Virus record (IMG/VR): IMGVR_UViG_3300046777_002520
Span: 32,001 to 96,000 of that record
DNA: 64,000 bases
DNA from: a virus
Direction: 5' to 3' (one strand)
In this document: piece after piece, positions 29,421 through 36,500 of the stretch
Position numbering within the stretch: the first letter of the stretch is position 1
How the letters are laid out: every line of letters begins with the position of its first letter
Position numbers and translations under genes: made by a program
The notes under the pieces: model-generated
What the model was told of the DNA's origin: nothing
The model's database searches: none
Seen by the model: the letters and a program-made list of their open reading frames with translations, nothing else

Positions 29421-30971
29421 ATGCCAGATCCGTCAAACAACAAGAGAATAGATCAGCTAAATAATCGCACGCCTGAGCCGACCGATTATTTAGCCATATC
29501 TCCCGACGGCGGGCCTGCTGGCAAGGCCACGATCTCTGACGTTGTCAGCTCTTTGAATGTGGCTGGTCCGACTGGAGCTACAGGTCAGACTGGCGCAACT
29601 GGCGTAACAGGCGCTACTGGCATCACTGGTGCCACTGGCGCTACCGGAGTCACAGGTGTAACTGGGGCTACCGGTGCAACGGGGCAGACAGGGGCTACAG
29701 GTGCAACAGGTCCTACTGGCAATACTGGGGTTACTGGCGTCACTGGCGCTACCGGTGTTACTGGAGCTACGGGCGCAACAGGTGTCACAGGCGCGACGGG
29801 CGTCACCGGTCAGACAGGCGTCACTGGCGCTACCGGAGCCACCGGAGCCACTGGTGTAACAGGTCAAACCGGTGCCACAGGTGTCACTGGCGTAACGGGT
29901 GAGACCGGCGTTACAGGCGTTACCGGCGAAACAGGCGTCACAGGCGTTACCGGAGTTACTGGTATCACCGGCGCAACCGGGGCAACGGGCGCTACAGGCG
30001 TAACCGGAGCTACCGGCGTCACGGGCATTACTGGACCTATTGGCGTAACCGGTACAACTGGTGTCACTGGTGCAACAGGAGCTACCGGTGTCACAGGTGT
30101 AACAGGCGCTACTGGCGAAACAGGCGTCACTGGTGTTACTGGCGCAACAGGTGTTACTGGCGCAACTGGCGCAACAGGAGCTACTGGTGTAACTGGTGCT
30201 ACTGGCGTAACCGGTGTCACGGGCGCTACAGGAGCCACTGGCGTAACCGGAGCAACAGGAGAGACAGGCGTAACAGGAGCCACAGGTATCACAGGTGATA
30301 CAGGGGCTACAGGCGCTACCGGGTCTACTGGTGTTACTGGTGTAACTGGAGAAACTGGTGTTACCGGAGCAACCGGTGTTACAGGCGATACTGGAGCTAC
30401 AGGGCCTACAGGCGTAACTGGCGCGACAGGCATTACAGGTGCAACAGGAGCTACAGGCGTAACTGGTGTTACTGGCGAAACCGGTGTAACGGGTGAAACA
30501 GGCGTCACTGGCGCTACTGGTATCACAGGCGCTACGGGCGCTACGGGCGTGACAGGAGTTACTGGAGAAACAGGAGTCACAGGCGCTACAGGAGTTACTG
30601 GCGAAACAGGTGTAACTGGCGCAACAGGTATTACAGGACAAACAGGTGCTACTGGTATCACAGGCGCGACGGGCGCAACCGGCTCTACAGGTATCACGGG
30701 CGCTACCGGCGTTACGGGTGTCACTGGCGCTACTGGCGTAACTGGAGCCACAGGCGCTACTGGCGTCACAGGCGTAACTGGCGTAACCGGCGCTACTGGG
30801 GTCACAGGTGTTACTGGCGCTACTGGCGTTACAGGCGCTACCGGTGTCACAGGCGAAACTGGTGTAACAGGAGCCACAGGCGTTACTGGCACAACAGGAG
30901 CTGCGGCTTTTGGAAGAATGTACTTCCTAAGCACATTAGAGAGCGACATCGTCCTGGTCGATAACCCTTGA
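29421..30971 (+). CDS. Collagen-like (Gly-X-Thr) fibre protein, segment 1
   Basis: Short N-terminal anchor, then a long uninterrupted GVT/GAT/GET triplet run; ends in a ~20-aa orphan [14 protein letters not shown]... segment. Confidence 0.85.
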
Positions 30972-30985
30972 TGAGGGTGTGAGCC

Positions 30986-33547: not shown

Positions 33548-33571
33548 GCTAGCTTTTAGAGGGTCACTGCC

Positions 33572-36500
33572 TTGGCTAGGTCACGAAAAACAAGAACCTC
33601 GAATAAAGCTAACGAAGTCAGTTTAGACTCCGCTTTTGAGATTAAAGCTGGAGAATCTGGTGGTGATTTTCCGCCAGAGGGTCCTACCACTACAACAAGC
33701 TCCAGCAGTACGTCTAGCTCTAGCAGCTCTAGCACTACAACTACTACAACGTCTGAACCCGTATTTACGCCTAACACTTCTCCAGCTTTGTTCGTAGCCG
33801 TGGCTATGAACACGAACATATCTGCCAGAAGCTATGACGGCATTAACTGGGAACAAGGCACTCTTCCAGCTACACGATCCTGGACAGGCGTCGCTTTCGG
33901 CAACAACACATTTGTTGCACTGGCATTCAACACCCAGTATTACGCTACGTCTCTAGACGGCAAAAACTGGACAGAAAGACAACTGCCTTTGCCGTCCAAC
34001 TGGAGTACGGTTAAGTTTGTCAACAACAAGTTCTGGGCTGTAGGCACAGGCTACAACAGAGCCTACTCGTCAAGCGACGGTATCAACTGGACTCTGTCTA
34101 CTTTCTCTGGCGGCACAAACTACAACGTAATAGACATAACTTACGGTGGCGGTAAGCTAGTAGCTCTCGACGTAGACAACAAAATCTACACGTCTACTGA
34201 CAACGGCTCTACCTGGTCTGCTTCGTCGTTGCCAGGCTCCAGCTGGAGCGCGGCCATACTGTATGCTGATTCTAAATTCATATTCTTGAAGCAAGACGGC
34301 CAGGTGTACAGGTCTTCTGACGCTGTAACTTGGTATCAGCAGACCAGCGCTGGTCGAAGTACTAACTGGCAAGGCCTTGTTTACATCAAGGGAGACTTTC
34401 TTGCGCTAAGTGGCAACAACCAAGACTCTTCCTATAGCACCGACGGCACTGGCGGTAACTGGGCTTTTGACTTCTACAACTTCACTCCCAACATGGGAGC
34501 TAAAAAAGCCGCATACGCTCTTAGTAACGATCTCATCATAGCTATCGGCGTTTCTGACAAAGTTGTCTACGGTAACTCAGTACGCCCTGGCAATGAGGCT
34601 TTCTTGCCTGCAGCTACCAATCCTTCGCAAGGAAAGTGGTGGGCAGACATAACGTCTACAGAGTCTTCTTTCACAGAGCCTCCGACTACCACAACGACTA
34701 CAACAACCACGACAACGACTACGACCACGACAACTACGACTACAACAACCACTACTCCTGCACCAGAGGACTGCAATGCTCCTCCGTCAGGCACACCACA
34801 GACCTACGACGCTAATTTCAACAGTTTGGATATTGTCACGGACACAGCTGACAACTCTGTCAGCTACGCTACCGTAAATCAAAGCAGTTCTTTTAACTCT
34901 GCTTCATCCAGCTACCTTGACGAAGACTTCAACCCATCAGCTTTGATCAACGGATACGTTACCAAGATAAACCAGCCTGGTACTTCAGTTATCCCTGCTG
35001 GTAACTGGCTGTTCAATGTTTACTTGTATGCCAGCAACCTGGCTTATTACTCGTATGTTGACTTCAGGGTTTACATACTCGGTCCAGACAATACCAGAAC
35101 TTTCTTGTTTGAAGCGAGCAGTCCAGTAATCGACTCGACATCGGTTAAGCTGTACTCATTCAACCAGTACTACGCCTCAGACACGCCAGTATCTGTTAAC
35201 GATCGTTTGTTGATCAAAGCTGTTGCAAGAACAGAATCGCCTACAGACTTAAACATTTACTTCACGCATAGCGGCTCTTGCTATGTCAGCCATGTTCTTA
35301 CGCCTATCGGTGGGTCGTCTTCAGGCTCCACAGGCGTTACTGGCGCAACTGGTGCCACAGGTCAGACTGGTGCTACAGGCATAACCGGCGCGACAGGTGT
35401 AACCGGTTTAACGGGCGTCATCGGCGCGACAGGAGTTACAGGTGTCACAGGTGCTACGGGAGTCACGGGCGCTACAGGTGCTACAGGTGTTACAGGCGTC
35501 ACTGGGGCTACTGGCGTCACTGGTATTACTGGCGCTACAGGATCTACAGGCGTTACTGGAGCTACAGGTGTTACTGGCGTCACTGGTGTTACTGGTGCTA
35601 CTGGCGTTACAGGCGCTACTGGTGCGACAGGAGCAACAGGTGTTACAGGCCAGACGGGCGCGACGGGTTCTACAGGCGTTACGGGAGCGACTGGCGTCAC
35701 AGGGACCACTGGTCCTACCGGAGCCACAGGAACCACAGGCGTAACCGGTGTCACAGGCCCAGTCGGCGTCACAGGTGTCACAGGCACAACAGGCGTAACT
35801 GGTGCGACTGGAGCTACAGGTGTAACTGGCGTAACTGGCATCACAGGCCAAACAGGCGTTACCGGTGTCACGGGTGCGCAAGGCGCTACAGGAGCCACTG
35901 GTCCTACCGGTTTGACAGGTGCCACAGGCATTACAGGCGCTGTAGGTGCTACAGGCGTAACGGGTCAGACAGGCGTTACAGGCCCAAGCGGTGCTCAGGG
36001 TGCAACTGGCGCTACAGGCATTACGGGCACAACTGGTATCACTGGTGCTACAGGTGCTACTGGTACGACAGGTGTAACAGGCTCAACCGGTGCCACAGGC
36101 GTTACGGGCGCTACTGGCGTAACTGGCGCTGATGGCGGTATGCTTACGCCCAGCCAGTACGTAGTCCAAGGCAAACTGGCTGCTAATCAATCCATACCAG
36201 CCAACGCCGACACAGTAATCCAGTTCGTAGACGACTTTGACCCCAAGAACTGGCTTGACGCATCTACTCGCAGAATAACGCCAACTACTGCTGGTTATTA
36301 CAATATTGCTGCCGGTGTTCTTTTCGACACTGCAGCTACTACAACAGGGCAATCCAACCTACAAATCCGTTTAAACGGAAATACTGTAGTTATTAACCAG
36401 CAGCCTATGGCGACAACAGCCCCTACAGGGTTTAGCGCGTCAAGGATTCTATATCTTAACGGTACAACAGACTACATAGACGCGACGTTTTACCACAACA

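Follow-up and report, generated by a model that had tools for sequence, protein, structure and literature searches.

The window analysed here, 64,000 nucleotides long, corresponds to positions 32001-96000 of the IMG/VR record IMGVR_UViG_3300046777_002520, a sequence of 191,966 bases from an uncultured phage. It contains three consecutive genes on the + strand, referred to as g1, g2 and g3, which encode fibre proteins in each of which G-x-T collagen repeats predominate. A domain that related phages carry unbroken in their collagen proteins, called here the connector, is divided at both junctions between these genes, with its first strand left at the C-terminus of one protein (the plug) and its remaining body placed in the next protein (the socket). 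This arrangement suggests that the three proteins are linked end to end by completing each other's domains.

Three fibre genes and two split junctions

The first gene, g1 (29421-30971), encodes 516 amino acids (aa) and consists of a non-collagen N-terminal head of about 48 aa, a single collagen run (aa 49-495) and a plug; it lacks a socket and a distal head. The second, g2 (30986-33547, 853 aa, TTG start), has a socket on its N-terminal side and a plug at its C-terminus, its interior being made of collagen, a GDKYKTTS-type knot and a C1q-like domain; a recognisable N-terminal fibre-attachment domain and a distal head are both missing. The third, g3 (33572-39670, 2032 aa, TTG start), is composed of an N-terminal arm, a socket, collagen with inserted knots and a C-terminal head that is phrog_17490-like in a PHROG search, and it has no plug. 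All three match the Pfam model PF01391 (Collagen), with expectation (E) values of 2e-71, 3e-56 and 6e-105 for g1, g2 and g3, respectively, and the tail-fibre PHROGs 6320, 5073, 28263 and 30509 match the fibre proteins with E down to 1e-105. Besides Collagen, the Pfam scan of g1-g3 gave solely a sub-threshold DUF6242 (21.1 bits, cut-off 29). The collagen residues number 447 in g1, 396 in g2 and 756 in g3, about 1600 in total, which at 0.286 nm per residue would give a summed triple helix of about 0.45 micrometre.

Right after the collagen, g1 and g2 end in an orphan strand of about 20 residues with the pattern G-R-x-Y-F...S-D/G-I, encoded at 30903-30968 in g1 and at 33482-33544 in g2. The two strands are of different types, F-G-R-M-Y-F-L...VLVDNP in tail 1 and Y-G-R-L-Y-Y-F...NTNT in tail 2. 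The stops that follow are TGA TGA after g1 and, after g2, a TAA, three codons and then an in-frame TAG, and the domain is interrupted by these stops and a new start at 30969-30988 and 33545-33574.

The new start is announced at both junctions by the same signal, a Shine-Dalgarno-like GAGGGT followed by 4 nucleotides (nt) and GCC-TTG-GCT-AG. It spans 30973-30993 at junction 1, where stop and start are 14 nt apart, and 33559-33579 at junction 2, where the spacer measures 24 nt and g3 lies in the frame of g2. The full motif, GAGGGT-N4-GCCTTGGCTAG, has exactly two copies in the window, one at 30973 and one at 33559, against an expectation of 0.17 even if three mismatches are allowed, and its exact core, GCCTTGGCTAGRTCA, is found at junctions 1 and 2 only across the whole 192-kb genome. 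A scan of viral contigs for the junction motif returned 24 matches, which are real solely on one related contig (L010, discussed below), the others being chance occurrences in unrelated genes. Neither junction has a promoter-like or terminator-like site, which, together with the 14- and 24-nt spacers, fits co-transcription and coupled translation of the genes. The proteins started in this way begin with MARSKKT (g2) and MARSRKT (g3).

The sockets are located at 31103-31594 (body 2, aa 40-203 of g2) and at 34841-35332 (body 3, aa 424-587 of g3), and they are the sole copies of the body in the genome. Body 2 is preceded by a short arm of about 39 aa that starts with MARSKKT (30986-31102). A preliminary description of this stretch, made from the letters and their reading frames, had reported the orphan strands, the double stops, the identical re-initiation signal with its MARS(K/R)KT N-termini and a head-less body in the reading frame after each junction; each of these was found again at the positions given above, and the motif count confirms that the signal is shared by the two junctions.

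The arm of g3 is much more elaborate and contains a seven-bladed beta-propeller (33776-34687, aa ~73-375), modelled by AlphaFold2 (AF2) with predicted local distance difference test (pLDDT) scores of mostly 83-92. The model matches the solved structures 2z2n (VIA Z 27.5, root-mean-square deviation (rmsd) 2.4, 261 aligned) and 7bid (Z 27.1). Ahead of the propeller AF2 gives low-confidence helix and disorder, and between the propeller and body 3 there is a run of threonines (34685-34756, aa 372-395). An Asp-box propeller on a 24-Thr stalk had been described here beforehand: the run is exactly 24 residues long, the propeller fold stands, and the motifs resemble Asp-boxes, most of them reading S-x-D-G-x-x-W, one residue shorter than S-x-D-x-G-x-x-W, with one canonical copy. 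The propeller has no Pfam BNR match, and its DUF6242 score is the sub-threshold one given above.

The connector domain and the position of the cut

The g2 body was used to search 1.84 billion representative proteins (E up to 0.001), and 1091 homologues were retrieved. Nearly all of the best 150 carry the sequence G-x-x-(Y/F)-(Y/F)-x4-S-D-I-x-x-Y-E-x-L ahead of the body within the same polypeptide, and in these 150 this first strand very often lies immediately C-terminal to collagen. The same arrangement, with an unbroken connector, occurs in the two megaphage giants LR756501 and LR756502 (family E down to 1e-35). The continuity of the domain in related phage collagen proteins, which the preliminary description had stated, thus holds in the homologues and in both megaphages, and the homologue search that it had suggested finds full-length relatives beginning with the G-x-x-Y-F...SDI strand right before x-Y-E-x-L. 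A C-terminal orphan strand was also sought in the best 150 homologues, and none was found after collagen, the scores being lower and scattered.

The ends of the tails and the starts of the bodies locate the cut within the loop between S-D/G-I and x-Y-x-x-L. The g2 body begins with ...F-A-D-M-Y-N-L; the start of the g3 body is less certain, as g3 is divergent here. A 177-position connector profile, built from 46 continuous homologues, is covered from position 4 to 176 by a continuous copy, from 1 to 18 by the tails, from 13/18 to 176 by body 2 and from 12 to 176 by body 3 (157 and 117 bits for the two bodies). With a profile restricted to the first strand (the first 21 alignment columns), tails 1 and 2 reach 10.8 and 11.1 bits, and the N-terminal arms of g2 and g3 give no match. 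Fused in silico, tail 1 and body 2 align without gaps over positions 4-176 and reach 169.1 bits, compared with 162.2 for the body by itself (+7 bits). The whole profile of about 177 positions is matched only by tail and body together, and no polypeptide of the window holds the domain between two collagens.

The fold of the domain was obtained from an AF2 model of P0031, a continuous homologue, based on a 46-sequence alignment. The mean pLDDT of 10-residue blocks is 85-99 over residues 21-190, and the segment equivalent to the orphan strands (I-W-Y-F-R-Q-A-D) is an eight-residue beta-strand, E25-32, in blocks with mean pLDDT of 88 and 97, followed by ten further strands in a domain of about 170 residues. 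Structure comparison identifies the model as a galactose-binding-like jelly-roll, whose closest solved relatives are found in hydrolases of the CocE/X-Pro-dipeptidyl-peptidase type, as their C-terminal domains (8yzn, Z 14.2, rmsd 2.9, 158 aligned; 6nff, Z 13.4; 4pf1, Z 12.9; 3i2f, Z 11.6, 163 aligned); carbohydrate-binding modules come next, with Z of 7-9. The solved jelly-rolls align to the P0031 model from residue 18-21 to residue 187-189. Because the alignable range begins at residue 18-21, the first strand belongs to the conserved core of the fold and is not a loose extension, and bodies 2 and 3 are jelly-rolls that lack it.

Junction 2 was also modelled as if it were read through, by translating 33200-35371 with TAA and TAG as Q (P0153, 724 aa) and folding the product with AF2. 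The alignment that was used (A4) was inspected and places the collagen and strand of the homologues on the orphan strand and their bodies on the g3 body; two others (A3 and A5), in which the homologue strand was misplaced beside the body or x-Y-E-x-L fell on the arm, were set aside. In the resulting model the orphan strand forms a 13-residue stretch of DSSP 'E' (R100-N112) with a mean pLDDT of 92 for residues 101-110 and flanks below 50. In the body (539-701) most pLDDT values lie between 87 and 96, falling at an insert specific to g3, and the same ten strands as in P0031 are seen; no segment of the arm competes for the position of strand 1. This alignment already pairs the strand with the body, and the model accordingly speaks for compatibility, not as independent proof.

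Pfam has no model for the connector domain, which recurs in many collagen or fibre proteins of uncultured Caudovirales in a viral structure library. The large search also returned a split-type protein, P0002, with a MAKRKKNK start, poly-Thr and a body devoid of the strand; a scan of viral contigs with it gave no matches. Two other homologues (P0032 and P0105) are proteins of about 230 aa in which the connector stands alone, preceded by a signal-like segment at the N-terminus and followed by a membrane anchor at the C-terminus, indicating that the domain is not confined to virus fibres. Finally, a sub-group of homologues (positions 2035-3318 of contig L040; P0104, P0121 and P0138) has no G-x-x-Y-F strand before the body but another upstream segment instead (..AITIVPNLESL, ..TVTIKADRERIT), which may be another way of supplying strand 1.

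Conservation of the split in related phages

A counterpart of the system described here is found in the contig L010 (IMGVR_UViG_3300008113_000084), which has the same three genes and both junctions, with a body that is 80% identical. The tails (tail 2 being identical), the stops, the Shine-Dalgarno-TTG signal and the basic N-termini, MANSRKNK and MARSRKNR, are all retained. Three further metagenome contigs (L035-37, from Ga0315901, Ga0315904 and Ga0315909) have the same arrangement, which makes four assemblies with L010. A third lineage, found in two samples (L038/L039; Ga0315904_10000072, 157 kb), has a body that is 47% identical and a junction of the g3 type: the upstream gene terminates in an orphan tail, ...AYGRMYFFNSVKSTVPLVDNP, the junction reads TAA-GAGGGT-TCTA-GCC-TTG, and the protein of the next gene starts with MARRNKNK and contains a propeller, a stalk of Thr and a body that lacks the strand. 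The preliminary description had named assembly errors at the junctions as a way in which its interpretation could fail; the same splits are present in independent assemblies of these two other lineages.

The upstream gene of L038 carries, in addition to its orphan tail, an unbroken copy of the domain between two collagens (G-F-G-R-T-Y-F-F-D-A-A-E-S-D-I-T-G-M-E-S-L...), apparently at the position that corresponds to junction 1 of the window. The same fibre system therefore shows the connector both fused and split.

Comparison of the codons of the window and L010 reveals 9 synonymous and 3 conservative non-synonymous changes in tail 1, and 4 synonymous and no non-synonymous changes in tail 2. 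With 13 synonymous versus 3 non-synonymous changes, the orphan tails are under purifying selection. The inner modules of the rods behave differently, as the C1q-like domain and the GD-x-Y-x-TTS knot are part of g2 in the window (29421-33547) and of g1 in L010 (2727-7338). Modules have been relocated and joints and tails kept, which indicates that recombination reshuffled the rods, and the shift between g1 and g2 points to recombination within the collagen repeats. Furthermore, both joints have the same start cassette, which suggests a single fission that was later copied to the other site, as could happen if a split and an unbroken copy of the domain recombined.

The basic N-terminus, M-A-[RKN]-[SR]-[KRN]-K-[TN], is common to six socket proteins, namely g2, g3, L010 5875 and 7363, L038 2822 and P0002, and a TTG start behind GAGGGT was found in every socket protein whose DNA was read. 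This N-terminus may serve to clamp the joint during assembly, or it may be a feature of translation initiation.

Proposed assembly and comparison with known systems

The distribution of plugs, sockets and heads over the three proteins suggests that gene order equals assembly order. The genes would produce three collagen-like homotrimers joined head to tail, in which g1, with its N-terminal head and a plug only, would be the virion-proximal piece, g2, with a socket and a plug, an extender, and g3, with a socket only and a C-terminal head, the distal, receptor-binding piece. At each joint the proximal protein would retain the first strand as its C-terminal plug, and the socket of the distal protein would provide the other ten strands; the three plugs of one trimer would enter the three sockets of the next as strand 1, by beta-sheet completion in trans. 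The segments N-terminal of the socket would leave the fibre sideways, as a short basic arm in g2 and as the propeller on its 24-Thr stalk in g3, and joint 2 would display three such propellers as side branches. That domain completion in trans chains g1, g2 and g3 into one very long, branched fibre is given here a probability of about two in three (0.68). The preliminary description had offered the same interpretation, and it gains support from the homologues, the fold, the relatives, the selection on the tails and the read-through model, the binding of tail to body being a prediction.

Several considerations weigh against the trans-completed fibre. The structural prediction of the tail-body joint was made with a single chain rather than a multimer, and the paired alignment biases AF2 towards docking of the strand, which was read from DSSP and pLDDT only. 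Moreover, AF2 would draw the body as folded even if the strand were missing, and the need of the body for the strand is an assumption of the model. The arms of g2 and of its L010 counterpart have an (S/G)-F-Y-P motif in common that could act as a strand in cis, which the profiles do not support. Such a cis strand was considered and judged unlikely, as the strand profile finds nothing in either arm and AF2 gives only disorder and helix of low confidence in the part of the g3 arm ahead of the propeller. The gene that follows a type-1 tail (...PLVDNP) in L038 encodes a g3-type protein, which makes the tail-body specificity and a strictly linear order uncertain.

The proteins might instead form separate fibres or decorations, each attaching by itself, for example through its basic MARS-type N-terminus, with the tails as leftovers of the fission or as collagen caps and the bodies folding alone. 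This reading takes advantage of the predicted nature of the joint and of an AF2 body that is complete but for strand 1, and the basic N-terminus M-A-[RKN]-[SR]-[KRN]-K, kept in six proteins, could be a separate signal for attachment or assembly. It is nevertheless unlikely, as the tails hold the strand 1 consensus across lineages whose bodies are 80% and 47% identical, with mostly synonymous change, as the strand lies within the fold core of solved relatives, and as g2 has no recognisable fibre N-terminus or distal head and g1 no distal head. If the same joint chemistry is accepted, the topology could still be looser, g1 carrying either g2 or g3 and g2 adding to g2, and the fibres would be variable or alternative. 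The L038 tail of type 1 followed by a g3-type socket protein agrees with this, as do swapped in-silico fusions that score like the native pairs (167.5 versus 169.1 and 122.2 versus 120.2 bits), although profile scores cannot measure specificity; the two tail types differ consistently and each is kept in L010, suggesting a partner of its own for each tail, and a loose topology is regarded as quite improbable.

A single polypeptide with an unbroken domain would result if the genes were joined in the RNA or during translation (by an intron, read-through, a frameshift or ribosome hopping), and g2 and g3 do share a frame at junction 2. However, the frame offsets are +2 at junction 1 of the window, +1 at junction 1 of L010 and in L038, and 0 at junction 2, and because they differ, no conserved frameshift or read-through can join the genes. 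In addition, each junction of the window has two in-frame stops, the Shine-Dalgarno sequence and TTG are conserved, and the arms stay open and coding despite strong divergence, that of g3 being a well-predicted propeller; recoding is consequently given very little credence. Ribosome hopping at junction 1 (CCT...CCT) was considered and rejected, as the landing frame meets a stop and the frames vary between phages, and an intron or other known RNA was discarded after Rfam (introns included, E up to 1) gave no family matches in 29000-36000. Collagen repeats are difficult to assemble, and an assembly or sequencing artefact, or a decaying gene, might be suspected on this ground. This is hardly credible, given that the same junctions, stops and start signal recur in 3300008113_000084, Ga0315901, Ga0315904 and Ga0315909, as well as in two samples of a second lineage, and that the tails are under purifying selection.

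A broader idea, which is doubtful, is that the junction as a whole (orphan strand, stop, GAGGGT-N4-GCC-TTG, basic arm and socket) is a portable cassette that converts a covalent connector into a non-covalent snap joint, a modular kit for host-range evolution. If so, fibres of variable length or composition could arise (g1-g3, g1-g2-g3 or g1-(g2)n-g3), given that g2 has a plug as well as a socket, and recombination within the connector could let lineages exchange entire rod segments and the domains of the side branches.

Other genes close to the three described here may belong to the virion. Upstream, at 25791-28886, lies a gene for a 1031-aa protein whose only PHROG match is weak and limited to the first 50 residues (phrog_1375). 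This protein has Q/A-rich sequence of low complexity, a run of acidic residues and a hydrophobic segment at the C-terminal end, and it may be an internal virion or ejection protein. Directly after g3, at 39549-40340, a 263-aa Laminin_G_3/concanavalin-like lectin protein is encoded (PF13385, E 8e-18), which is a candidate for an accessory adhesin or for a partner of the fibre tip. A second collagen fibre gene (42456-45491, 1011 aa, P0155) has its own N-terminal domain and neither plug nor socket. A module of about 95 aa is present twice in P0155, ahead of the collagen and at the C-terminus, and a post-collagen module (TSQSANL-EWQNSAG) is common to P0155 and the distal part of g3.

If the proposed assembly is correct, the joint would be a natural split-protein connector for trimeric rods, consisting of a 20-residue plug and a 150-residue socket and derived from the fission of a linker domain. 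It would account for the building of very long collagen-like fibres, here of about 1600 collagen residues and 0.45 micrometre, from separately translated pieces, for the mounting of extra domains such as the propeller on its Thr stalk as side branches, and for the exchange of fibre segments between phages. The case opens the assembly of fibres in large uncultured phages to direct tests with short peptides and small domains, and the plug-socket pair may serve as a protein-engineering tag for trimeric assemblies.

The principle itself has well-known counterparts. In the chaperone-usher pili (Fim, Pap, Caf1), an incomplete beta-sandwich receives its missing strand from the adjacent subunit, and the chain formed in this way is polar and non-covalent. 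The pilins have an Ig-like fold devoid of its last strand, which the N-terminal extension of the next subunit donates, and they are assembled as homopolymers by a periplasmic chaperone and an usher. In the phage fibre, by contrast, a jelly-roll lacks its first strand, which another trimeric protein would donate with its C-terminus; the virion gene cluster of the phage showed no genes for a chaperone or usher, where no search aimed at them was made. The long tail fibre of phage T4 is likewise a chain of several proteins, gp34-gp35-gp36-gp37, encoded by consecutive genes, joined end to end and with gene order equal to assembly order, and in this it resembles the proposed g1-g3 fibre. No sequence relation to T4 was found, the PHROG matches of g1-g3 being confined to collagen-type fibre families, and to our knowledge the joints of the T4 fibre have not been described as one domain split between two genes. 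The single-chain collagen fibres (LR756501, LR756502, P0031 and the upstream gene of L038) have the same domain at the same place, with no internal stop, arm or start.

The closest published precedent found comes from the Lactococcus phage Tuc2009, a solved phage case of the same joining principle, in which a 25-residue C-terminal hairpin of BppU completes a beta-sheet of domain 2 of BppA, the two together looking like an entire titin-like domain (PMC4742702). There, a hairpin enters an Ig/titin-like sandwich in a siphophage baseplate, and the system has neither collagen nor a chain of rods nor an unbroken homologue that reveals a fission, whereas the fibre described here would insert a single first strand into a galactose-binding-like jelly-roll between collagen helices, twice in succession. 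Collagen is involved in the F-ENA appendages of Bacillus thuringiensis endospores, where short hook peptides at a terminus couple the collagen-like trimers F-Anchor and F-BclA to further subunits of the fibre through beta-sheet augmentation (PMC12357932). These differ from the phage joint in that the socket is a DUF4183 head-neck subunit, the hook is N-terminal, the setting is a bacterial spore and the joint does not stem from the fission of a connector domain; at the sequence level, the general Pfam scan of g1-g3 reported only Collagen and the sub-threshold DUF6242 and not the F-ENA acceptor DUF4183. No paper that describes the splitting of a collagen-interrupting connector domain between phage fibre genes was found in a literature search. 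The joint proposed between g1, g2 and g3 would be a case of beta-sheet completion in trans put to the service of phage fibres.

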